NCBI GenBank assembly: GCA_034434235.1
Contig: DAOTZV010000192.1
Coordinates: 5,037 to 69,036, forward strand
Direction: 5' to 3'
DNA from: Anaerolineae bacterium
GTDB lineage: Bacteria; Chloroflexota; Anaerolineae; CG2-30-64-16
DNA length: 64,000 nt
The translations under genes were made by a program, and so were the position numbers. Below, piece after piece: positions 20,330 to 52,043 of the stretch. The notes below the pieces were generated by a model. The model was not told where the DNA came from. It saw only the letters and a program-made list of their open reading frames with translations, and made no database searches. The first letter of the stretch is position 1. Every line of letters starts with the position of its first letter.

Positions 20330-21229
20330 ATGTCACATCCATCCTGGCGCGGCAGCTTTGCCATTCCGATGACCCCGTTCGACGAGCGGGACCGGATCGA
20401 CGAAGAGGTGCTGGCCGCGGAGATCGAGTTCTGCATCCAATCACGCGTCGGCGGCATCGTGACGCCGGTGATGGTGAGCGAGTTTCAGACCCTCTCCGAA
20501 GAGGAGCGCCGACTGATGATCCGCGTGCCGGTCGAAGTGGCGCGCGGCCGCGTGCCGGTCGTCGCGAACTGCGCTGCGGTCAATACGCCGCTGGCGGTCC
20601 GCTATGCGGTCTACGCGGAACAGGTAGGCGCGGCCGCGGTGATCGCCATGCCGCCCTACGGCCTCCCCGCCGATTTCGACACCGTTTACGCCTACTACAA
20701 GGCGATCTCCGATGCGATTTCCATCCCGATCTGGATCCAAAACGCCGGCGTGGCGCCCCTCTCGCTCGATCAGGTCGTCCGCCTGTGCACCGAGATCGAG
20801 CACGTGAGCTGGGTGAAAGAGGAGGTGAATCCGGGCCCGCAACGGATCGGCATGTTGCTCGATCGCAAGTGCCCGGCCATCCACGGGGTGATGGGCGGCT
20901 ACGGCGGCCGCTACATGATCACCGAGTGGGCGCGCGGCGCGGCCGGGGTGATCCACGCCTGCCAGTTCTGCGACGTGGTGCAACGGGTGTGGGAGCTGCT
21001 GGACGCCGGCCAGGAGGATGCGGCGCGCGATCTCTTCGAACATCTCTTGCCCGGCCTGACGCTGGAAGGGCTGATGGGGATGGCCTTCGCCAAGGAGATC
21101 ATGGTGCGCCGGGGCATCTTCAAGAACCATCGGATGCGCAGCCAGGCGCGTCCGCTGGATGCGCACGACATGCGCGAGATAGATCGGGTGTGGGAGCGCA
21201 TCCAGCCCTATCTGATCTGGCGCAAATGA
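20330..21229 (+). CDS. DapA-family protein (2-keto-3-deoxy sugar acid dehydratase-like)
   Basis: MTPF, VMVSE in place of GxxGE, AMPPY and WVKEE. Confidence 0.82.
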   Translation: MSHPSWRGSFAIPMTPFDERDRIDEEVLAAEIEFCIQSRVGGIVTPVMVSEFQTLSEEERRLMIRVPVEVARGRVPVVANCAAVNTPLAVRYAVYAEQVGAAAVIAMPPYGLPADFDTVYAYYKAISDAISIPIWIQNAGVAPLSLDQVVRLCTEIEHVSWVKEEVNPGPQRIGMLLDRKCPAIHGVMGGYGGRYMITEWARGAAGVIHACQFCDVVQRVWELLDAGQEDAARDLFEHLLPGLTLEGLMGMAFAKEIMVRRGIFKNHRMRSQARPLDAHDMREIDRVWERIQPYLIWRK

Positions 21230-23948: not shown

Positions 23949-23996
23949 GCGTAAAACGTCAAACGTTAAACGTAAAGCGTAAAACGTAAAACGTCA
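23949..23996. repeat. Heptamer tandem repeat (AAACGTA)
   Basis: Lies between convergent genes and abuts the stop codon at 23994. Confidence 0.8.
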
Positions 23997-24818
23997 GGCG
24001 TCGGGGTCGGTCGGTTCGTTCAGGTTGATTTCGATTTCCGGCAGGCCTTCGTTTTTGCGCGGCCGCGGCCTGGTGGTCGGCTCGGGTTTGGCCGCGCTGG
24101 AGGCCGGCTTCGGTTTGGCCGCGCCGGTGGTCGGCTTGGGCTTGGCCGCGCTCGAGGCCGGCTTCGGTTTGGCAGCCGTTTGCGTTGTCGGCCTGGGTTT
24201 GGCGGTGCTCGAGGCCGGTTTCGGCTTGGGCTTGGCGGTGCTGGAAGCTGGCTTCGGCCTGGTCGTGGCATCGGTCGGCTTCGGTTTGGCGGCCGATTGC
24301 GTGGTCGGCCTGGGCTTTGCGCCGGCCGTCGGCTTCAGGCCCGGCAGGTTGAAGAGGCCGCCCAACAGCGGCAGGAGCTTTTGCAGCGCTTTGATCGCGG
24401 CGCTCAAGTCGAGGCCGGTCGTCTTCATCAGTTCCTGCGGCAGGCCGCTGGCCTTGAGCGCGTTCGGGTCCGGTTCTTCGCCGCTGCTCGCCTGCGCCAG
24501 GAGCGCGCTCAGGTCAATGCCGGCTGCTTTCCGGGCGGCTTCTCCCTGACCGGCTTCGCCGGCCAGACGGCCGGCGAGCAGGGCAAGCACCGCCTGAACG
24601 ACGGCCGGCGTCACCTGGGCTTGTTCGGCCAGGCCCGCTACCGGATCGCCGGCCGGCGCCGCTCCGCCGGCCAGGAGCGACGAGAGCAGCCCTGCCGGCG
24701 AGCTGCCTTCTTTTCCTTCGGCCCCGCCCAGCAGCGCGGCCAACAGATGGCCGAGCGGATCGCTCTCCTGCTGGGCTTTGCCTTTGTTTCCTCCGAGCAA
24801 TTGCATCAGCTCGTCCAT
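23994..24818 (-). CDS. Hypothetical protein: DUF937-like N-terminus and Lys/Pro/Ala-rich AAKPKP repeat tail
   Basis: LGHLLAALLGG...GLLSSLL helices; about 8 AKP(K/R/E)P(ASS/TT) repeats. Confidence 0.75.
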   Translation of the reverse strand: MDELMQLLGGNKGKAQQESDPLGHLLAALLGGAEGKEGSSPAGLLSSLLAGGAAPAGDPVAGLAEQAQVTPAVVQAVLALLAGRLAGEAGQGEAARKAAGIDLSALLAQASSGEEPDPNALKASGLPQELMKTTGLDLSAAIKALQKLLPLLGGLFNLPGLKPTAGAKPRPTTQSAAKPKPTDATTRPKPASSTAKPKPKPASSTAKPRPTTQTAAKPKPASSAAKPKPTTGAAKPKPASSAAKPEPTTRPRPRKNEGLPEIEINLNEPTDPDA

Positions 24819-24861
24819 TTTGCCCTCTCTGTCTTGGTCTAGCAATTCCGCGCGCCGCGGC

Positions 24862-27429
24862 TCACGCCAGATGCAACCGCATCACGTCCTGATCGTAAGT
24901 GATATCCATGGTGTCGGCCGGGAACTCGGCCTGGCCGTAGATGCTCTCGTGATGTTTGAAGCCAACGATCGGCTCTTCCCGGCCGTTGCGGAGCAGGGGA
25001 CCGGTCCAATCGAACTCGAGGTGTTCGTCGCGGATCGTGCGCCAGGAGACGCGAAGCCCGTCCACGACCGGCGGCCGGGCCAATACCCGCCGGCGAAACG
25101 CCTCGAAGCTGCCATCCATTTCCTTCGATCCCATTTGACATAACCATACGTTGCGCGGCCCCGGCGAACGCAGCTCGCGATAGGCGTCCGGGCCGGTGCG
25201 CATCAAGGTGAATCCCTGGCCGGCGTAGAGCGCCAGATAGCCTTCTTCCACCCGTGCAAAGGCCCAACCGCCCTCGATCACGTGCTCTTTGAACGCGTAG
25301 GTCGGGAAGTAGGCGTGCGTGAAGCCCAACCAGTCGTCTGCGGGCAGTTGGTAGAGCGCGATCAGCGCGTCCTTCCACTGCGCCACGCGCGGCAGCCGGC
25401 CGTTGCCGCGCCACCAGCCCGCCGCGCGGCCATCCGACTCGCTGAAGCTGGTCGGATGGTTGGTGAAGACCAGCGCCTCCGGGCTCATGGTGGCCTGCCA
25501 GATGTGCTCGCAGCGGCCGCGGGCGCCGGGCCGATAGTCCTGGGCCGAGCTGAGCATGAAGTCGGCCGTGCGGTAGGTGGCGGTGTTCACCTCAATCGCG
25601 GATGCCGCGGCCGCGTCGGCCGGCTCGACGCCCGACTGGCGGCCGCGCGCCCACACCTCGCGCTCGACGTCGGTCGCGATCGAGTGGATGACGGTCGGCA
25701 GCTCGTAGCTGCGGCCGGCCACCATCAGGCTGATCGCGGCGATCATGCCGCCCTGCGGGCCGCCCATGCCCCACAACATGCGGCCCACCGCCGCTTCGGG
25801 CGCGAAGCGGGCGCTGCGCAGGGTGGCCACGTCGGTCAGGCCGCGGCTGCCGCCGAAGCTGCCGTGGAACGATTGCACGGCCACATCGAACAGCACCTTG
25901 TCCAGCAGCACGGCCGCATGATCCATGATGGCTTCGGCCTTGGCCAGGTCCACCAGGTGGAGGAGCGCGGCGATGATCAGGTCGGTCTGCGCGTTCCAGA
26001 GCCCGAAGCCCGTGCGCGCGTGCGTCTTCAACCAGGCGGCCGCGCGGGTCTCGCCTTCGCTGCGTTCCTGGCGGCCGGTGCGTCCCGTGGCCGCGAAACG
26101 GTGGCGGCCGAAGATCTGTCCGGCCAGGATCTGGCACGTGTAGAGCACGATCTGCTCGGCTTCGGTGAGGGGCGGGTAGCCGGCCGGCATGCCTCGATAG
26201 TCGAAGCCGAGCAGCGCCGCGTCCAGCTCTTCGAGCAGGTCGGCCGGGAACTTCGCGTGGCTCGCCATGCGCTGCCGTATGCTCACCAGCCCGAGCAGGT
26301 CGGGCAGGCAACCGAGCTCCCGGCGGTTCACCCGGCCGATGCCGGCGCGGATGTTCTTCGCATCCACCGTGCCCCACCAGTCGGCCGCCATCTGGCCGAG
26401 CTCGCCGAACACGGTGCCGCTCTGCGAGGCGTGGCGCAACAGATCGCGCAGGCCCTGGCTATAGTCTGCTTCGGGCGTCTCGGAGAAGGGGCGGTTGGCC
26501 ACCCAGAAGCGATATGTGCGCTGGGCGCGCAGGTTGGCCTCGTAGAACAAGGTGGGCGGAGGCATCAGGACCGCCTGCATGGGGCCGGGCGGCAACTGCA
26601 CCCCGTAGATGGTGTTGATCTGTGCGCCGGATTGCACCGAGCCGTGCGATTCGCCGTAGATCCAGCCCTCCGGCGTTTGCAGGCGCAGCACCGACTCGTA
26701 CGCGGCCGGCGTATCGTCCGGGCTGATCAGCCGTGCAACGTCGTCGGCCGTCACCACGGCCCGGTCGAGATAGGGGAACTGGTAGGCGCGTTCGACGGCC
26801 AGCCGATCCTTCGGCCGCAGGGTCAACGTCATCAGTTTGGCCTTGACCGAGGAGGCCGCTGCGCCCGCGATCCGCAGCCCGAAGGCCAGCGCGGCGTCGC
26901 CGATGGCGATCTGTTCCAGCCGGACGAGCAGGCGATTGTCGCGCGGCCGCAACTGGACGGTTCGGGTGAGCGTGCGCAGCGACTGGTCGGCGGGGTCGGC
27001 GAAGAGGTCTTCATCGGCGCCGAAATGGACGGCTTTGTCGTTCAGCCATACGGTCGTCGGGCAGGTCGCGAAGAGCTGCAGTTCGACTTCCTGCCCGCCG
27101 GCCGAGGAGAGGATCGTATAGGCCCAAACGCGGCGGGCCGTGTAGTTTTTGAAGGAAGCGCTGAAATCGAGCAAATGATCGGCCTCGCAATGGGCCGCCT
27201 CCCAGTAGTGAGGTTCACCTCTGCCCTCGCAGGTAAAGCGATCCAGCTCGGTGGGATCATCGAAGTCGGGCCTGGTTCGATCGGCAGAAGCGAGCATTCG
27301 GCGTCGGAAAGCCGGTTCGGATTCGGCCGGCTCGGGGCGGGCCGTCAGCTCGGTGTCGCACGGGCCCAGGATCAGCCAGTCGTGCACATAGCCGTCGGCG
27401 AGTTGGTAGGAGAGCGCGGTTTTCTTCAT
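24862..27429 (-). CDS. Large uncharacterised protein, possibly carbohydrate-active
   Basis: N-terminal WLILGP...VWLND...NRLLVR beta-sandwich pattern; C-terminal HIWQATM..EALVFTNHP and WWRGNGRLPRVAQ blocks; strong codon bias. Confidence 0.8.
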   Translation of the reverse strand: MKKTALSYQLADGYVHDWLILGPCDTELTARPEPAESEPAFRRRMLASADRTRPDFDDPTELDRFTCEGRGEPHYWEAAHCEADHLLDFSASFKNYTARRVWAYTILSSAGGQEVELQLFATCPTTVWLNDKAVHFGADEDLFADPADQSLRTLTRTVQLRPRDNRLLVRLEQIAIGDAALAFGLRIAGAAASSVKAKLMTLTLRPKDRLAVERAYQFPYLDRAVVTADDVARLISPDDTPAAYESVLRLQTPEGWIYGESHGSVQSGAQINTIYGVQLPPGPMQAVLMPPPTLFYEANLRAQRTYRFWVANRPFSETPEADYSQGLRDLLRHASQSGTVFGELGQMAADWWGTVDAKNIRAGIGRVNRRELGCLPDLLGLVSIRQRMASHAKFPADLLEELDAALLGFDYRGMPAGYPPLTEAEQIVLYTCQILAGQIFGRHRFAATGRTGRQERSEGETRAAAWLKTHARTGFGLWNAQTDLIIAALLHLVDLAKAEAIMDHAAVLLDKVLFDVAVQSFHGSFGGSRGLTDVATLRSARFAPEAAVGRMLWGMGGPQGGMIAAISLMVAGRSYELPTVIHSIATDVEREVWARGRQSGVEPADAAAASAIEVNTATYRTADFMLSSAQDYRPGARGRCEHIWQATMSPEALVFTNHPTSFSESDGRAAGWWRGNGRLPRVAQWKDALIALYQLPADDWLGFTHAYFPTYAFKEHVIEGGWAFARVEEGYLALYAGQGFTLMRTGPDAYRELRSPGPRNVWLCQMGSKEMDGSFEAFRRRVLARPPVVDGLRVSWRTIRDEHLEFDWTGPLLRNGREEPIVGFKHHESIYGQAEFPADTMDITYDQDVMRLHLA

Positions 27430-27540
27430 GCGGTTTGCCTGAATGAAAGGTGTGATGCGTGAACGACAGATAGCAGGATAACACAGGCGGTGATGGCTGT
27501 CAAAGAAAGAGCAACGGCGCAACATCGCAACGAACGGCTT

Positions 27541-28729: not shown

Positions 28730-28802
28730 TACCCCTGGCTGGATTCGAACCAGCGGCCTTGTGCTTAGAAGGCACCCGCTCTGACCACTGAGCTACAGGG
28801 GC
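28730..28802 (-). tRNA. tRNA-Arg(UCU)
   Basis: Cloverleaf GCCCCTG/CAGGGGT, D arm GCTC/GAGC, loop CTTCTAA, T arm GCTGG-TTCGAAT-CCAGC; CCA not encoded. Confidence 0.95.
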
Positions 28803-29427: not shown

Positions 29428-30549
29428 ATGCCCATCACTCCCATCCGGCCGAAATGGCCCGGCACCATGACCGACCGCGAGCGCTTCGTCCGCCAGATGC
29501 ATTATGCGCCCGTGGACCGCTGCTTCAACATGGAATTCGGCTATTGGAACGAAAACTTCACTCAGTGGCCCCTCTTCTACGAGAACGGCATCACCAACAA
29601 CGCCGAGGCCGACATCTTCTTCAACTTCGACCGCATCGTCACGGTCGGCGGCTGCATCTGGATGCATCCCACCTTCGAGAACGTCGTCGTCGAGGAGCGC
29701 GAGACGACAAAGGTCATCATGAACGCGGACGGCCTGTTGGCCGAAGTGCCCAAGGACGGCCACGATACCATCCCCCACTACCTCAAGTCGAGCATCCAGA
29801 CGCCGGCCGACTGGCAGAGGGTGAAGGAAGAGCGCTTTCGCCGCGATGACCCCGCGCGCAAGGTGGACGTGCAACTGCTCAAGGAGCTCCACCCTTCCAG
29901 TCGCGACTATCCGCTTGGCGTCCACTGCGGCTCGATGATCGGCAAGATCCGCGATATGCTGACGTTCGAGGGATTGGCCTATGCCATCTACGACTACCCG
30001 GAGATGGTCGAGGACATGGTCGAGACGGCCTGCCTGCTCGTCGAGGACTTCCTGGATCAGGTGCTCGGCCATATTGACTTCGACTTCGCGTCGGGGTGGG
30101 AGGATATCTGCTATAAGGGCGGCCCGATCGTCTCGGTGAAGTTCTTCAAGAACGTGGTGATGCCGCGCTACAAGCGCATTCACGCCAAATTGAAGGCGGC
30201 CGGCATTGACCTGTGGTATACCGATTGCGACGGCGATGTGCGGCCGCTTTTGCCTTATTTCATGGAGGGCGGCATCAACTGCCTCTTCCCCTACGAGGTC
30301 AACAGTTGCGCGCACCCCGGCGAGCTGCTGAACAAATACGGGAAGGAGCTGCGCATCATGGGCGGCTTCGACAAGTTGCAGCTCGGCGCCGGCCGTGCAG
30401 CCATCAAGGCCTACATGGAAACCCTGGTTCCGCTGGTCGAACGGGGCGGCTACATCCCCTTCTGCGACCACCGTTGCCCGCCCAACGTGGACCCGGACGA
30501 TTATCTGTACTATCTGGATCTCAAGGAACAGATGTTCGGGATGAAGTAG
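29428..30549 (+). CDS. Uroporphyrinogen decarboxylase/MtaA-CmuA-fold protein
   Basis: GWEDICY, YTDCDGD, GGFDK and GGYIPFCDHRCPPNV; no HemE-specific N-terminal RQAGR motif. Confidence 0.85.
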   Translation: MPITPIRPKWPGTMTDRERFVRQMHYAPVDRCFNMEFGYWNENFTQWPLFYENGITNNAEADIFFNFDRIVTVGGCIWMHPTFENVVVEERETTKVIMNADGLLAEVPKDGHDTIPHYLKSSIQTPADWQRVKEERFRRDDPARKVDVQLLKELHPSSRDYPLGVHCGSMIGKIRDMLTFEGLAYAIYDYPEMVEDMVETACLLVEDFLDQVLGHIDFDFASGWEDICYKGGPIVSVKFFKNVVMPRYKRIHAKLKAAGIDLWYTDCDGDVRPLLPYFMEGGINCLFPYEVNSCAHPGELLNKYGKELRIMGGFDKLQLGAGRAAIKAYMETLVPLVERGGYIPFCDHRCPPNVDPDDYLYYLDLKEQMFGMK

Positions 30550-30683
30550 GACCGAATTTATTCGGCCTTATGCGATGGAGGAGGCCGAATGAATTCGGCC
30601 TTACATCATTATGTGATGGGTGGCCGAATGAATTCGGCCTTACATCTTACGTGATGGAGAAGGTCGAATGAATTCGGCCTTAC
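30546..30683. repeat. REP cluster: one forward plus three inverted copies, 39-40-bp period
   Basis: GTAGGACCGAATTTATTCGGCC, then GGYCGAATGAATTCGGCCTTAC at 30583, 30622 and 30662. Confidence 0.92.
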
Positions 30684-30710
30684 ATAACGCAGAGTGACGA
30701 GGAGCAAGCC

Positions 30711-31991
30711 ATGTCCGCAGATACCACCATTGTTTCGGTCACCGCCCGCCAGGTCTATTCCGATCGCGGCCATCCGGGCGTTGAAGCGACGGTGAAGACC
30801 GCCAACGGCGCGCAGGGGGTTGCCATCTGCACCGCGGGCATCTCGGTCGGCACCCACGAGGTCGAGTTCGCCTACGACGGTGGCCCCAAATGGCGCGGCA
30901 AGGGCGTCATGCGCGCGGTCAATGCGGTGAACGAGATCATTGCGCCGGTGCTCAAGGGAATGGACGCCACCCGGCAGCAGGCCATTGACCAGGCGATGCT
31001 CGACCTGGGCAAGCAGCGGGTGGGCGGCAACGCGACCGCGGCGGTCTCGGCTGCGGCGCTGAAGGCCGGCGCGGCTGCGCTCGGCATTCCGCTCTACCAG
31101 CACATCGGCGGCGTCAACGCCTGCACCCTGCCCGTGCCGGGGGTCATCTGTCTGGTGGGCAGCGATCGCTATGGCGGCGGCGCGCGCTCGGGCGGCAAGC
31201 CGAGCTACGCGTTCATGTGCTACGGCTTCGATACCTTCTCCGAAGCTTCCTACGCCGGCTGGGACATCTCGGTCGAGTGGTCCGATGTGTTGAACAAGAA
31301 GCTCGGCGTGCCCAAGCATTCGGTCACCCACGCGCCGGGCGTGCCGCGCGGCTACGTCAAGGACGATCGCGAGATCTGGGACCTGATGGTGCAGACGATC
31401 AACAAGCTCGGCTACGAGGGGAAGATCGGCATCCAGGTGGATGTGGCGTCGGAGACCTACTGGGAGGAAGCCGAGGGACGCTACATCGGCCTCTTCTCGG
31501 AGACGCCGAAGACGAAGGACGATCTGTTCAAGATCTACCACATGATGGCGCGGGACTATCCCTTTGTCATCATCGAAGATCCGTTCGACGAGGACGATTA
31601 CGAGAGCCACGCCATCCTGACGCGCGAGCTGGACATCCAGATCGTGGGCGATGATCTGTTCACCACCGATCCAGCGCGCGTACAGAAGGGGATCGACGCG
31701 GGCGCGGCCAACTGCGTGCTGCTCAAGGTCAACCAGATCGGCACCATCTCCGAGGCGCTCGACATGATCCAGCTCGCTTATCGCCACGGCTACGGCGTGA
31801 TGCCGTGCTCCAGCCGGGGCGAGGGCGCGGACATCGCGGACTACTGCGTGGGGATCAACGCCGGCACGGTGCGCGAGAGCGCCACCGGCCCGGCCGGCAA
31901 CCGCTTCCTGCAGATCGAGGCCGAGCTGGGCAAGCGCGCCAAATTCCTGGGCAAGCGCGGGTTGAAGGGCCGGCGGTTCCAGGGAGGATGA
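30711..31991 (+). CDS. Divergent enolase-like protein
   Basis: Enolase scaffold (RGHPGVE, GKGVMRAV, IEDP, VGDDLF, LLKVNQIG) without NGGxH, QEF, GDEGG or SHRSGE. Confidence 0.88.
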   Translation: MSADTTIVSVTARQVYSDRGHPGVEATVKTANGAQGVAICTAGISVGTHEVEFAYDGGPKWRGKGVMRAVNAVNEIIAPVLKGMDATRQQAIDQAMLDLGKQRVGGNATAAVSAAALKAGAAALGIPLYQHIGGVNACTLPVPGVICLVGSDRYGGGARSGGKPSYAFMCYGFDTFSEASYAGWDISVEWSDVLNKKLGVPKHSVTHAPGVPRGYVKDDREIWDLMVQTINKLGYEGKIGIQVDVASETYWEEAEGRYIGLFSETPKTKDDLFKIYHMMARDYPFVIIEDPFDEDDYESHAILTRELDIQIVGDDLFTTDPARVQKGIDAGAANCVLLKVNQIGTISEALDMIQLAYRHGYGVMPCSSRGEGADIADYCVGINAGTVRESATGPAGNRFLQIEAELGKRAKFLGKRGLKGRRFQGG

Positions 31992-32068: not shown

Positions 32069-32512
32069 CTACAGACGGGAGACGAGGGCCGCCGCACGGC
32101 CGGCGCGGCGCAGCAGGACGACCAGCGGCGGAGGCGCGTCGCGGCGATAGGCCACGGCCGCGCGCAGCACGTCGAGCGCCACCGCGAAGTCGGCCGGCGC
32201 GGCGGCCGCGAAGATCCCCGCATCCTCGTACAAAACCAGGTGGCCGGCCGCGGCCGGCGCCCACGAGAGATCGCGCAGGCAGTCGGCCAGGGCGTCCCAG
32301 TTCCGGCCGAAATAGGCCGGAAATGCCAGCGCCCGGCTGCAGGCCTCCAGGAAGGCCGCCTTCGAGCGGATCTGGCGGCCCTCCAGTCGGGCGAAGCGCC
32401 AGCCGCAGCGATCGGCGCGCGCCGCGATCTCGTTCGCGAGGATCGGCTGCGTCAGACGGTAGACGTCCGGCGCGATGCGGCCGGCCAGCAGATCGTCCAA
32501 TCTGTCCTTCAT
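32069..32512 (-). CDS. Barstar family ribonuclease inhibitor
   Basis: FPAYFGRNWDALADCLRDLSW; ATGA overlap with the RNase gene. Confidence 0.92.
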   Translation of the reverse strand: MKDRLDDLLAGRIAPDVYRLTQPILANEIAARADRCGWRFARLEGRQIRSKAAFLEACSRALAFPAYFGRNWDALADCLRDLSWAPAAAGHLVLYEDAGIFAAAAPADFAVALDVLRAAVAYRRDAPPPLVVLLRRAGRAAALVSRL

Positions 32513-33123
32513 GGGATCACCCGCCGAAAGCTGTTGTAGTGGTCATCGGTGTAATACAGTTCGCCCTGGTTGCCCCGCACTAACCGCCGCGCCCCGCGAT
32601 CGGCCGAGCCGGGCGTGACCACCGTGTATTCCCGGTAGTAGCCGGCCGGCTTGCGCGGCAGGCGTCCCTCGCGATTCTCGAACACCACCCCATCCTGGCG
32701 ATAGGGAAACGGCCCGCCGGCCGCGATCAGGCGGAGCGTGTCGTGCGCCTCGGCCGGCAACTGATCCAGCCGGATCGTTCGCATCGGGTCGCCGGGCAAC
32801 GGCGTGGCGATGAGCAGGCCGCCGGGGGCTGGGGATGGGGGGGTGGGGGCTGGGGGCTGGGGGCTGGGGGCAAGATGAGGCGTCGGTGTGAACGAGGTCG
32901 GCCGCGTCGCCGCGGGGGAGGCCGGGTGCGTCGGCGCGGGGGAAGCCGGGCGTGTCGGCGCGGGGGAGGCCGGACGCGTTGGCGCGGGGGAGGCCGGGTG
33001 CGTCGGCGCGGGGGAGGCCGGGCGCGTCAGCGCAAACACTGCCAGGCCGACGGCTACGATCAGGAGCGCCAGGACGGCAAGGGTGCGCAGGTTGCGCTGC
33101 ATCGGTGATCGTCGTTGCGCCAT
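32509..33123 (-). CDS. Guanyl-specific ribonuclease (N1/T1/Sa family) with signal/TM segment and Pro-rich linker
   Basis: GPFPYRQDGVVFENREGRLP, YYREYTV, RGARR and YYTDDHY; start at 33123 (TGATG overlap) or 33102. Confidence 0.92.
   Translation of the reverse strand: MAQRRSPMQRNLRTLAVLALLIVAVGLAVFALTRPASPAPTHPASPAPTRPASPAPTRPASPAPTHPASPAATRPTSFTPTPHLAPSPQPPAPTPPSPAPGGLLIATPLPGDPMRTIRLDQLPAEAHDTLRLIAAGGPFPYRQDGVVFENREGRLPRKPAGYYREYTVVTPGSADRGARRLVRGNQGELYYTDDHYNSFRRVIP
32826..33021. repeat. In-frame repeats in the RNase linker: heptamer tract plus five 24-bp units (PASPAPT[H/R])
   Basis: Direct translation and DNA periodicity. Confidence 0.85.
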
Positions 33124-34550
33124 CAGACTTTGGCTCCTTCCGCCAGTTGCCGCCGCGTCCAGCCGTTCAGGATCGGATCGCGCGTCTCCTCCAGCCACGC
33201 GAGCATGCGCCGGCGCAAGCGGGCCAGCTCGGCCGCGGCGGCCGGGTCGGTCGCCCGGTTGACGATCTCGACCGGATCGGTCGCCAGGTCATAAAGTTCG
33301 TCTTCGGCGGTCAGGTTCCAGACGTACTTCCAGCGCCGATCGCGCACCATCCGCTGGCTGTAGAGGCCGAACTGATTGCCGAAGTAGGTGCAGAAGATGT
33401 CTTCCCGGCCATTGGCCTCTTCCCCGCGGGCCGGCGGCAACAGGCTCTTGCCGACGAAGGTGGCCGGCGGGGGCGCGCCGGCCGCATCGCAAAAAGTGGC
33501 CGCCAGATCAATGCCCGCCGAGACGAACGCGTCGCAGGTCCGGCCCGCGGGGAGGCCGGCCGGCCAGCGCATGATCAGCGGGACGCGCGCCACGTCGTCG
33601 TACATGACGTAGTGCTTGTCGGCCATGCCATGCGCGCCGCACAGGTCGCCGTGATCGGCCGTGTAGATCACCAGCGTGTTCTCCGCCAGTCCCAACGCGT
33701 CCAGCGCGGCCAGGATGCGGCCGATCTGAGCATCAATCAGCGAGATCTCGCCCAGGTAGCGCGCCGCGATCGGCGCCCATTGCTCCCACGTCCACCCCTC
33801 GATGCCCCAGCTCCGCAATTGCTGGCGCTGGATGTACGGCTTGCCGATCAGCGGATCGCCGAAGCTGGGCCAGGGCGGGACGGCGGCCGGATCGTACATG
33901 GAGGCATACGGCTCGGGCACGATGTTCGGCAGGTGCGGCTCGTCGGTGTCCCAGCGGAGGAAGAAGGGCCGATCCCCTTGGGCCGCCCGCTCCAGGAGGC
34001 GGATCAGCTCGCTCGCGCCCCATCCCAGCCGCGATTGCTCCGGCGTGATGGCCCCATCCGGTTCGCCCCAATAGCCGTTCGTGCGCGGGACCGGCGGCAA
34101 GCCCTGCGCCTGCCGCCACGCGCGATAAGCGCTGTTCGGCACGTAGTCGTGGAAGCCGAATTGCGTGGGGTCGCGCTCCTGATCCACCTGCCACTTGCCC
34201 ACGTACCCCAAATAGTAGGGGCGGAAGCCTTCCGCCCCAGGGCGGAGGCCCTCCGCCCCTGCGCGGCCGGCCAACACTTCGCTCCACATCGGCAGGCCGG
34301 GGCGCAGCGCGGCGGTCGGCTCCAGGTTTTCGTTGCAGATCACGCCGTGCCGCGTGGGCCACACGCCGGTCATCAGCGAGGCGCGCGCCGGCCGGCACAC
34401 CGGGCTGGCGCAGAACGCATGGCTGAACGTCACGCCCTCGCGGATCAGGCGATCCAGGTTGGGCGTGCGGATCAGCGGGTGGCCGTGGCCGGCGATGCAG
34501 TCGTAGCGGTGTTGATCGGCCTGGATGAACAGGATGTTCGGTGCGGGCAT
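33123..34550 (-). CDS. Formylglycine-dependent sulfatase (S1)
   Basis: PNILFIQADQ, CRPAR (CxPxR), GKW, YTADHG, DELYDL..DP. Confidence 0.93.
   Translation of the reverse strand: MPAPNILFIQADQHRYDCIAGHGHPLIRTPNLDRLIREGVTFSHAFCASPVCRPARASLMTGVWPTRHGVICNENLEPTAALRPGLPMWSEVLAGRAGAEGLRPGAEGFRPYYLGYVGKWQVDQERDPTQFGFHDYVPNSAYRAWRQAQGLPPVPRTNGYWGEPDGAITPEQSRLGWGASELIRLLERAAQGDRPFFLRWDTDEPHLPNIVPEPYASMYDPAAVPPWPSFGDPLIGKPYIQRQQLRSWGIEGWTWEQWAPIAARYLGEISLIDAQIGRILAALDALGLAENTLVIYTADHGDLCGAHGMADKHYVMYDDVARVPLIMRWPAGLPAGRTCDAFVSAGIDLAATFCDAAGAPPPATFVGKSLLPPARGEEANGREDIFCTYFGNQFGLYSQRMVRDRRWKYVWNLTAEDELYDLATDPVEIVNRATDPAAAAELARLRRRMLAWLEETRDPILNGWTRRQLAEGAKV
34215..34262. repeat. REP-like tandem palindrome in frame inside the sulfatase
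   Basis: GTAG-GGGCGGAAG-C-CTTCCGCCCC plus a degenerate second copy; encodes GAEGLRP-GAEGFRP. Confidence 0.75.
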
Positions 34551-36221: not shown

Positions 36222-36278
36222 GCAGGGCCGAATTTATTCGGCCCTGCCCGTTGCGGGGCCGAATGAATTCGGCCCTAC
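36222..36278. repeat. REP doublet (REPIN-like) overlapping the LacI 3' end
   Basis: GCAGGGCCGAATTTATTCGGCCC ... GGGCCGAATGAATTCGGCCCTAC; same family as 30546-30683. Confidence 0.88.
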
Positions 36279-50891: not shown

Positions 50892-51968
50892 TCAATATGC
50901 TCCGTACTTTGCTACCAGCTCCATCACCCGGCAATATTGGGCGAACGAAACGTTGTTCGGCACCGAATGATCGGAGTGGTAGATGTAGCCGCCGCCGACC
51001 TTGGCGGCCGTGATCTTGGTGGCGATCTCGCGCTCGAGGACGTCCGGGTCGGGGTCGTTGAAGGTGCGCACGTCAATGCCGCCCATGAATGCCAGATCCC
51101 GGCCGTACTGCTGTTTCAGCGTCACCACATCCATGCCGGCCTTCACCTCCAGCGGCTGGAGACAGTCCAGGCCGGCGTCGATCAGATCGGGGATCAACAT
51201 GCGCACATCGCCGCACGAATGGAGGATCACCTTCATGCCGCGGCTGTGGAAGAAATCGAACATCCGTCTGTCGGCCGGCTTGATCAGCTTGCGATAGACG
51301 CGCGGGGAAAAGAACGGGCCGTTGCGATAGCCCATGTCGTTGTACAGGAACGCGGCGTCGAAGGCGTACCCCTCGGCCATGATGATCTTCGCCATCTCGA
51401 TCACCATATCGGCCTGCGTCTCGATGATGTCCTGGATCCAGGCCGGATCGTCTATCAGCAGGGTCAGGAGCTGGTCGGAGCGGATGTAGGCCTGGCACAG
51501 GTCGTAGCCGGTGATCGCGCCGTAGGTGACGTACAGGTCTTCGCTGCGCGCCCGCTCGTAATTGTTCTTCAGCGTGACCCAATCGACGCGGGTGAAGCCG
51601 GGTTGCAAGCGGCGTTTAGCCGCTTCCCAATCGGCGCGCGTCTTGATCCCGTAGTCAATCAGCTCGGGTGTAGTCGAATAGTCCCGATGATTTTTGCGCA
51701 CGCCGCCATACGGGGTGCTCTCGACGATGTACTCGTCGTTGCGCTCGAGCACCCGCACGGGGTACTGCGGGGTCAGGTCGGCGCCGAAGCTGCGCAGGTG
51801 AAAGCCGAAATACTCCTCGACCGGGATGCCGTCGGGCAGGCCTTCGCGGCGCCAGCGGGTCACCGTGGCCGCCCAGACGCTATCGTGGACGGGGATCCGA
51901 TCCCCCTCTTTGTGGTCGAGGGCCAGTCGGACGCGCTCGCGGGGGGTGAGACGAGTTGTTGTTGACAT
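50892..51968 (-). CDS. Uroporphyrinogen decarboxylase/MtaA-CmuA-fold protein
   Basis: YNDMGY, ILHSCG, LQPLE, GGID and GGYIYHSDHSVP. Confidence 0.87.
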   Translation of the reverse strand: MSTTTRLTPRERVRLALDHKEGDRIPVHDSVWAATVTRWRREGLPDGIPVEEYFGFHLRSFGADLTPQYPVRVLERNDEYIVESTPYGGVRKNHRDYSTTPELIDYGIKTRADWEAAKRRLQPGFTRVDWVTLKNNYERARSEDLYVTYGAITGYDLCQAYIRSDQLLTLLIDDPAWIQDIIETQADMVIEMAKIIMAEGYAFDAAFLYNDMGYRNGPFFSPRVYRKLIKPADRRMFDFFHSRGMKVILHSCGDVRMLIPDLIDAGLDCLQPLEVKAGMDVVTLKQQYGRDLAFMGGIDVRTFNDPDPDVLEREIATKITAAKVGGGYIYHSDHSVPNNVSFAQYCRVMELVAKYGAY

Positions 51969-52043
51969 AAACATCTCCGGGTTGACAGGTTTCTGTATCG
52001 GTGAACCGCCTCACATGATAGCACAAATTGCCCAAAAAGCCAC

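Follow-up and report, generated by a model that had tools for sequence, protein, structure and literature searches.

A window of 64,000 nt was analysed from contig DAOTZV010000192.1 of an Anaerolineae bacterium, in which an initial annotation had paired a UroD/MtaA-fold gene with a downstream enolase paralogue. Both open reading frames (ORFs) were recovered exactly where it had placed them, at 29428–30549 (373 aa) and 30711–31991 (426 aa) on the + strand, and are designated UroD1 and enoV (variant enolase). The locus comprised:

29428..30549, + strand: UroD1, a 373-aa divergent UroD/MtaA-fold protein (marginal Pfam URO-D match, structure search)
30550..30710, no strand: spacer of 161 bp, four tandem ~40-nt units, each with the palindrome GGCCGAATGAATTCGGCC
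30711..31991, + strand: enoV, 426 aa, of the Enolase_N + Enolase_C fold, active site rewired

The enoV product matched the Pfam families Enolase_N (3.6e-33) and Enolase_C (1.4e-53), as well as MR_MLE_C, and its closest relatives in the PDB were canonical enolases (e.g. M. jannaschii 2pa6 at 3e-79). An AlphaFold model built from 40 family sequences (pLDDT, predicted local distance difference test, 85.7) matched canonical enolases with template-modelling (TM) scores of 0.82–0.86 at 30–37% identity, and no nearer solved structure was found. The architecture was that of the enolase superfamily, an N-terminal capping domain and a modified TIM barrel, with D244, E289 and D314 corresponding to D246, E295 and D320 of yeast enolase, the superfamily's three carboxylate metal ligands at the ends of strands 3–5. 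By fold, metal ligands and base, as read from sequence and model, enoV belongs to the enolase superfamily and, within it, to the enolase subgroup. Its score on the NCBI eno equivalog TIGR01060 was 281.4 bits, below the 300-bit cutoff.

Active-site residues were mapped in yeast numbering by alignment to 15 canonical enolases, that of M. jannaschii among them. Retained in enoV were S39, D246, E295, D320 and K345, while H159 was replaced by R153, Q167 by P164, E168 by S165, D210/E211 by H207/A208, S372 by C366, H373 by S367, R374 by S368, S375 by R369 (R374 and S375 being swapped) and K396 by R388. All nine enolase motifs quoted in the initial annotation were located (LVGSDRY 148–154, SYAF 165–168, THAPG 206–210, VDVASE 243–248, IEDP 288–291, GDD 313–315, LLKVNQ 337–342, CSSRGE 366–371 and RES 388–390), and its statement that the Mg ligands and the base Lys are kept and the acid and substrate-binding residues replaced agreed with the alignment to the 15 canonical enolases. 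The positions concerned were:

30843..30845, + strand: codon of Ser45, equivalent to yeast S39, a ligand of the second Mg (loop 1), invariant in the family
31167..31172, + strand: Arg153-Tyr154 on lid loop 2, in place of His159-Ala, family-invariant; the loop has a 2-residue insertion
31197..31205, + strand: Lys163-Pro164-Ser165, in place of (L/I/F)-Gln167-Glu168, family-invariant as K-P-S/T
31329..31334, + strand: His207-Ala208 at the Asp210-Glu211 (general acid) position, hypervariable or gapped family-wide
31440..31442, + strand: Asp244, Mg ligand D246 by alignment
31575..31577, + strand: Glu289, Mg ligand E295 by alignment
31650..31652, + strand: Asp314, Mg ligand D320 by alignment
31725..31727, + strand: Lys339, catalytic base K345, invariant in 64 family members
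31806..31817, + strand: Cys366-Ser367-Ser368-Arg369, in place of Ser372-His373-Arg374-Ser375; C, S and R invariant, 367 variable
31872..31874, + strand: Arg388 in place of K396; canonical enolases have five more residues after this position

The general acid Glu211 and its companions Glu168/His373 were replaced by A208, S165 and S367. None of the residues that bind 2-phosphoglycerate (2-PG), namely His159, Gln167, Arg374, Ser375 and Lys396, was identical in enoV, the positive charges being partly preserved. At the level of sequence, the metal-binding, carboxylate-activating and proton-abstracting half of the active site is intact and the hydroxide-expelling half is gone, and the pocket is more cationic, two to three carboxylates having been lost and Arg153 and Lys163 gained. 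The anion-binding residues were altered as well (H159 to R, the R374/S375 swap and K396 to R, with Lys163 and Tyr154 as new invariant residues). The residues facing carbon 3 (C3) of the substrate differed from subclade to subclade. With a score short of the equivalog cutoff, and with neither the acid triad nor the residues that bind 2-PG, enoV should not carry the label EC 4.2.1.11. In work attributed to Poyner and colleagues in 1996, and to Reed, Brewer and others, the yeast enolase mutants E168Q and E211Q are said to lose ~10^5 of overall activity, the exchange of the C2 proton remaining. By analogy with this behaviour, proteins that keep only the K345 half would be predicted to enolise their substrate without canonical 2-PG dehydration.

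The enoV product proved to be one of many such proteins. A word-indexed search returned >120 clusters at 69–94% identity to enoV, several of them annotated at source as “enolase” or “phosphopyruvate hydratase”. Among genomes taken one per GTDB species (loci are referred to by L numbers), 58 loci had 50–99% identity, followed by a sharp fall to canonical enolases at <=40%, and in an exhaustive HMMER search of 1.84 billion representatives the variant family filled only a few 50%-identity clusters before scores reached canonical levels. Members were found in Chloroflexota (Anaerolineae, Caldilineaceae, Ktedonobacterales and Dehalococcoidales), Thermodesulfobacteriota/Syntrophaceae, Spirochaetes, Clostridia/Lachnospiraceae (Bacillota) and Bathyarchaeia. 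The closest enolase was 99% identical to enoV and came from the Chloroflexota metagenome-assembled genome (MAG) CYS170214_bin_175 (L008), which is probably conspecific with the source of the window. On a neighbour-joining tree the variant family was monophyletic and lay apart from canonical enolases. No description of it was found in the literature searched; a paper on a SAR202 “enolase paralog” was dismissed as an account of the family, as it concerns enzymes of the mandelate racemase (MR) type.

The family signature consisted of Arg-Tyr on lid loop 2, Lys-Pro-Ser/Thr, Cys-x-Ser-Arg and Arg at K396, all present in enoV with K345 and the Mg ligands kept. R153, Y154, K163, P164, C366, S368, R369 and R388 showed little or no variation in sets of 40 and of 64 sequences. 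Other changes were also constant in the family (SHRSGET to C-x-S-R-G-E-G, E/R to F/Y in loop 1, and the 5-residue deletion after the K396 position), and the equivalents of D210/E211 and H373 were hypervariable or deleted between subclades. The ratio of nonsynonymous to synonymous substitution (dN/dS) of enoV against eight clade members was 0.07–0.12. Strong purifying selection together with constant changes points to a working protein with a different active site; decay to a pseudogene was ruled out by the conservation and the dN/dS. That the reaction is non-canonical, as the initial annotation had suggested, is therefore a reasonable reading of family-conserved residue changes under selection.

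The loss of canonical catalytic residues would also suit a non-catalytic or moonlighting enolase-fold protein, and some relatives have gone further in this direction, lacking K345 or metal ligands as well (the second copies at L056 and L063, and P0243, P0246, P0247 and P0249). We consider this extremely unlikely for enoV, in whose family the three metal ligands, S39, K345 and the new active-site residues are invariant, dN/dS is ~0.1 and the gene is linked in operons to a kinase (see below).

The base or metal ligands were lost in the tandem second copies (L056, 11311–12600; L063, 9125–10414) and in the four P-numbered relatives by K345 to A/V/N, or by E295 to Q and D320 to G/C. These proteins may be non-catalytic subunits or pseudoenzymes beside a catalytic copy and a kinase of the MOFRL family. 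The representative search returned further non-canonical signatures across the enolase subgroup, including copies without K345 or metal ligands, which suggests that the subgroup is less isofunctional than usually assumed.

ORFs were called in 85 loci and clustered, and the clusters were ranked by recurrence. The commonest neighbour of variant enolases was a ~490-aa DUF4147+MOFRL protein, which by crude ORF calling and 30%-identity clustering was encoded co-oriented and within <=400 bp at 26 of 40 distinct, fully flanked family loci (31 of 56 overall). The recurrent partner is thus a MOFRL/DUF4147 glycerate-2-kinase homologue and not a UroD protein. The same kinase and enolase arrangement was seen in pre-annotated contigs (Thermodesulfobacteriota-like, Anaerolineae and other contexts), and four loci (L001, L003–5) were bare two-gene modules of the two. 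Because the MOFRL neighbour is spread throughout the tree, it is taken as the ancestral state. The window enolase belonged to a shallow terminal clade (88–99% identity) nested among MOFRL-linked clades; no MOFRL gene was detected by tblastn in the 64-kb window, and in this terminal clade, a derived twig, the kinase neighbour has been lost.

The partner was homologous to the class-II glycerate 2-kinases PH0495 (archaeal, 6e-56) and TM1585 (Thermotoga, 2.5e-45). Kinases beside variant enolases formed separate, longer clades (28–36% identity, 94 bits on the NCBI glycerate-2-kinase model), whereas those beside a class of near-canonical enolases clustered with PH0495 (37–41% identity, 215 bits), indicating that kinase and enolase diverged together. 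MR_MLE dehydratases lay near variant enolases in 20 loci, and other recurring neighbours were a D-2-hydroxyacid dehydrogenase, a PfkB kinase, a LarA-like racemase, a DHDPS/NAL-type aldolase, a lactonase and a sulfatase. This set is the toolkit of the branched Entner-Doudoroff pathway, for which MR-MLE dehydratase, NAL aldolase, PfkB kinase and the MOFRL glycerate kinase are listed (PMC2063504). In that pathway class-II glycerate 2-kinase makes 2-PG, and the MOFRL kinase is followed by enolase (PMC2063504). Up to three divergent paralogues were carried by a single MAG in different clusters (L022/L043/L046; L021/L042/L050), and one locus (L052) had a tandem enoV-kinase-kinase-enoV. The multi-paralogue MAGs, this tandem, the co-diverged kinases and the hypervariable positions 210/211/373 point to substrate diversification, as in the MR/ManD acid-sugar dehydratases.

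We hold, with about even confidence, that enoV belongs to a monophyletic, previously uncharacterised family of kinase-coupled lyases acting on 2-phospho-hydroxy-acids. In this scheme the MOFRL kinase would phosphorylate, at the 2-O position, a 2-hydroxy-carboxylic acid derived from sugar-acid breakdown, and the variant enolase would enolise the phosphorylated acid via Lys339. Beta-elimination, or another fate of the enolate, would then yield phosphoenolpyruvate (PEP) or a PEP-like enol phosphate, and separate paralogues would serve different C3 substituents.

Several points weigh against the kinase-coupled scheme. Family membership, residue pattern, partner statistics and selection were observed directly, and it is from these that we infer the substrate class and the reaction. 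The low-confidence parts of the model were the active-site loops (pLDDT <50 at residues 44–63, low at ~150–160 and ~200–215), and the neighbour counts carry the crudeness of the procedure. As the window is without a MOFRL gene, kinase coupling is extrapolated to it from relatives. A replacement for the general acid could be provided by the invariant Lys163 or Tyr154. The surrounding genes (a glycerate-kinase homologue, a 2-hydroxyacid dehydrogenase and Entner-Doudoroff-type genes) are exactly those to be expected of a genuine 2-PG enolase.

Such a genuine enolase would be an isozyme dedicated to the pathway, the kinase making 2-PG from glycerate set free in sugar-acid catabolism and the enolase turning it into PEP, with Lys163, Tyr154-Arg153 or a subclade-specific His/Tyr, for example, supplying the acid instead of E211/E168/H373. 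The conserved partner is homologous to a kinase whose product is 2-PG, the MR_MLE, DHDPS aldolase, PfkB and D-2-hydroxyacid dehydrogenase neighbours would make up a complete route to glycerate, and the bare two-gene modules suit a product feeding straight into central metabolism. The variant enolase also keeps S39, the Mg ligands and K345, as well as basic residues at the phosphate/carboxylate positions, and the near-canonical enolase class is likewise MOFRL-linked. We nevertheless regard this as unlikely, though with a real chance of being correct, since E168, E211, H373, Q167, H159 and K396 are replaced in every member, the E211 position is hypervariable or deleted, and enoV lies below the NCBI eno cutoff. 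A single substrate would also be hard to reconcile with several divergent paralogues in one genome and with tandem kinase/enolase pairs, and the partner kinases are a separate clade, more divergent than those paired with near-canonical enolases.

A narrower version of the kinase-coupled scheme, which we rate as distinctly unlikely, would have the enzyme expel an anionic leaving group from 2-phospho-3-X-carboxylates without acid catalysis, Arg153, Lys163, Arg369 and Arg388 stabilising it, PEP being the product and positions 210/211/373 tuning the paralogues. The group could, for example, be sulfate, sulfite or phosphate, lost from 3-sulfo-, 3-sulfono- or 3-phospho-glycerate-type compounds, so that modified C3 fragments derived from sulfated or oxidised sugars would give PEP in one step.

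Enolisation might instead be followed by reprotonation, enoV then being a racemase, epimerase or isomerase of a 2-phospho- or 2-hydroxy-acid (1,1- or 1,3-proton transfer) with no elimination. This would account for the conservation of only the proton-abstraction half-site. The Arg-Tyr pair on the lid loop recalls ManD, a subgroup in which the base is a Tyr-Arg dyad, and LarA-type racemases adjoin at times (L030, L041), a sign that stereo-inversion matters in these clusters. We think this very unlikely, because opposite K345 no second acid/base was found to be conserved, the LarA homologues already provide racemases, and the pairing with a kinase suggests that ATP is spent for leaving-group chemistry or an energy-rich product.

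The initial annotation had proposed that enoV and the upstream UroD-fold protein catalyse a two-step pathway. In favour of this, the two genes run in the same direction with 161 bp between them, a promoter-like site precedes UroD1 only, and the stretch from one to the other has no terminator-like site on the + strand. Immediately upstream of enoV in the window and its relatives were found:

UroD1: the window (gap 161 bp); L009, L091 and L092 (gap 63 bp); L095 and L097 (gap 215 bp), i.e. three lineages
UroD2, 19–21 bp upstream: L010, L040 and L093, in a UroD2-enoV-MR_MLE operon
373-aa protein with a sub-threshold URO-D match: L099
unrelated repeat protein: L094
beta-helix protein: L098, with UroD1 absent within 6 kb
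434 nt of unrelated, repeat-rich non-coding DNA: L008, the closest relative, with downstream synteny intact

The L099 protein gave a weak hint only of a URO-D relationship (12.7% probability in a profile comparison with UroD1; E = 0.002 for Pfam URO-D). UroD2 was 24% identical to UroD1 and MtaA/CmuA-like, with 76 bits on Pfam URO-D, and no orthologue of it was detected by tblastn in the 64-kb window. In L093 and L094, UroD1 was anchored beside gdh/gltB with variable genes (2.6 kb and 8.4 kb) before the enolase; the adjacency in the window is therefore read as lineage-specific synteny after loss of intervening genes. Unrelated genes intervene in L099 also, the upstream DNA is unrelated in the 99%-identical L008, and no UroD gene adjoins the enolase at any of the remaining ~50 family loci. 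In three other phyla the UroD1 orthologues stand alone, away from any enolase, and the spacer is an array of hairpins resembling repetitive extragenic palindromic (REP) elements that is absent from the relatives. A two-step pathway of UroD1 and enoV is on these grounds a poor prospect: the recurrent family neighbour is MOFRL (26/40), and the adjacency is broken within the clade itself. The comparative context (solitary orthologues, intervening genes and L008) also ruled out a conserved UroD1-enoV operon, while the UroD2-enoV-MR_MLE operon gives residual support to some link of UroD-fold enzymes with the window's subclade.

When L008 (1–434) was set against the window (30277–30710), synteny broke exactly at the enolase start codon. 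The break region of L008 carried GGGG/CCCC palindromes where the window has UroD1 and the REP array, and looks like a rearrangement hotspot.

UroD1 itself passed the Pfam URO-D gathering cutoff marginally (26.9 against 23.9 bits) and scored 16.1 bits on the MtaA/CmuA model TIGR01463, for which the cutoff is 235. Sequence search found no relative in the PDB, and the UroD1 model (pLDDT 75) matched only the MtaA-type methyltransferase 4ay7/4ay8 and UroD structures (TM 0.55–0.64, 12–14% identity). Of the “Zn-type TIM barrel” in the initial annotation, the UroD/MtaA fold was borne out by the Pfam score and the model, and the Zn type was not, as the H-x-C...C ligands of MtaA could not be mapped. No corrinoid/B12-binding protein gene was found among the genes annotated at 19–52 kb of the window, and no haem genes lay near UroD1 in the window or in L086–L090, so the context is not that of HemE. 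Orthologues 77–93% identical were found across Chloroflexota, Armatimonadota, Bacillota (Caldicoprobacter) and Bacteroidota; those of Caldicoprobacter, Chloroflexi and Armatimonadota (78–79% identical) were solitary, in unrelated, non-conserved contexts. To judge from these orthologues, UroD1 is a highly conserved orphan family of at least four phyla. Its invariant Cys/His residues were H25, H112, H117, H155, C202, C228, C267, C285, C294, H296, C346, H348 and C350.

The palindrome copies of the spacer lay at 30550–67, 30583–600, 30622–39 and 30662–79, with the REP-like form GGCCGAAT-GA-ATTCGGCC. Matches to the palindrome numbered 13 in the window against 0.1 expected, two more units lying at 36226–36274 upstream of an apiosidase-like gene. 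The spacer folded at -77.5 kcal/mol (z -9.6). The element was absent from all 94 related loci, the 99%-identical L008 included. A scan of 28–33.5 kb against Rfam returned tRNA-Arg only, MIR5998 and YrlB being dropped as identities of the spacer because they scored far below the gathering thresholds.

Three further genes of the window touch on the subjects above:

20330..21229, + strand: DHDPS/NAL-family aldolase or KdgD-like, 74% identical to the gene directly downstream of enoV in L014
22621..23940, + strand: MR_MLE acid-sugar dehydratase homologue, galactonate/mannonate dehydratase-like, of the family that recurs near enoV in 20 loci
50892..51974, - strand: UroD3, MtaA/CmuA-like (53–56 bits), 25–29% identical to UroD1 and UroD2

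The UroD3 gene lay close to a ychF GTPase gene, which the UroD1 orthologue of Armatimonadota L089/L090 likewise adjoins. The window also encoded sulfatase, apiosidase-like glycoside hydrolase, LacI and GFO/IDH/MocA genes, and no canonical eno was detected in its 64 kb by tblastn.

Directly downstream of the enolase, at 32069–33198 (- strand), were a barstar-like inhibitor (147 aa) and a secreted ribonuclease of the barnase/RNase Sa family with a Pro-rich PASPAPT(H/R) repeat linker, a pair kept in L008. An 887-aa ORF at 24862–27525 (- strand) had good coding statistics and no Pfam match even at E <= 10; beside it, at 23994–24845 (- strand), was a protein of 283 aa whose tail is an Ala/Lys/Pro-rich repeat (“AKPKP(T/A)S”). 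A tRNA-Arg(TCT) at 28730–28802 (- strand), between a UbiA-family gene and a 182-aa nucleoside-deoxyribosyltransferase-like ORF, bounded the UroD1-enolase segment on its upstream side.

Because the enolase subgroup has for a long time been taken to be isofunctional, annotation pipelines name these proteins “phosphopyruvate hydratase” or “enolase”. The present analysis defines a large, strongly constrained clade, spread across phyla, that has exchanged the dehydration half of the active site for other residues and is tied by genome context to a co-diverged glycerate-kinase-like enzyme. It lies within sugar-acid clusters of abundant uncultured anaerobes (Anaerolineae, Bathyarchaeia and Thermodesulfobacteriota), and recognising it corrects what is likely a systematic annotation error, one that makes glycolytic capacity look larger than it is when metabolism is reconstructed from MAGs. 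If the reaction is new, carbohydrate catabolism would gain a kinase/lyase route and a textbook superfamily a further functional branch; if enoV is a true enolase, 2-PG dehydration would be possible without the textbook Glu168/Glu211/His373 triad.

Compared with UroD (HemE) and MtaA/CmuA (PF01208), UroD1 had the same (beta/alpha)8 fold by structure search and a marginal Pfam match, but only 12–14% identity to solved members, its own invariant Cys/His set and an unusually high conservation across phyla. The non-phosphorylative Entner-Doudoroff branch (PMC2063504) shares with the enoV clusters the MR_MLE, NAL/DHDPS, PfkB and MOFRL families and the order of kinase then enolase; here, however, kinase and enolase are both divergent clades, and the window locus is kinase-free. 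The MR/ManD acid-sugar dehydratases resemble the variant family in metal-assisted enolisation, variable acid/base and specificity residues, many paralogues and sugar-acid clusters. They differ in that enoV has an enolase-type N-domain and barrel, with K345 instead of KxK/His-Asp, and in that they use unphosphorylated acids, with no kinase coupling.

The near-canonical MOFRL-linked enolases (Synergistota, Desulfovibrio and Bathyarchaeota; L067, L070–72 and L078) likewise fall in the enolase subgroup, are also MOFRL-adjacent, often with a LarA-like racemase, and are only 35–38% identical to enoV. This class keeps E168, E211, K345, R374, S375 and K396, departs from the canonical pattern at just two positions, H159 (L) and H373 (E), and reaches 513 bits on TIGR01060 (L071). 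Its loci had a conserved module of a LarA-like (malate/lactate-racemase-like) gene, an enolase and a MOFRL glycerate-kinase, which suggests that a 2-hydroxy-acid is turned into PEP by racemase, kinase and enolase in succession.

Enolase proper (EC 4.2.1.11; PF03952+PF00113; TIGR01060) has in common with enoV the two-domain fold (TM 0.85, 30–40% identity), the Mg ligands, Ser39 and Lys345, and with the variant family its position after a MOFRL-type kinase in gene order. In contrast, enoV is without H159, Q167, E168, E211, H373 and K396, has R374/S375 swapped, a 2-residue insertion with Arg-Tyr in lid loop 2 and a 5-residue deletion after the K396 strand, and has a sub-cutoff score. Enolase is usually a single housekeeping copy, whereas the variant family is multi-copy and lies in catabolic clusters.

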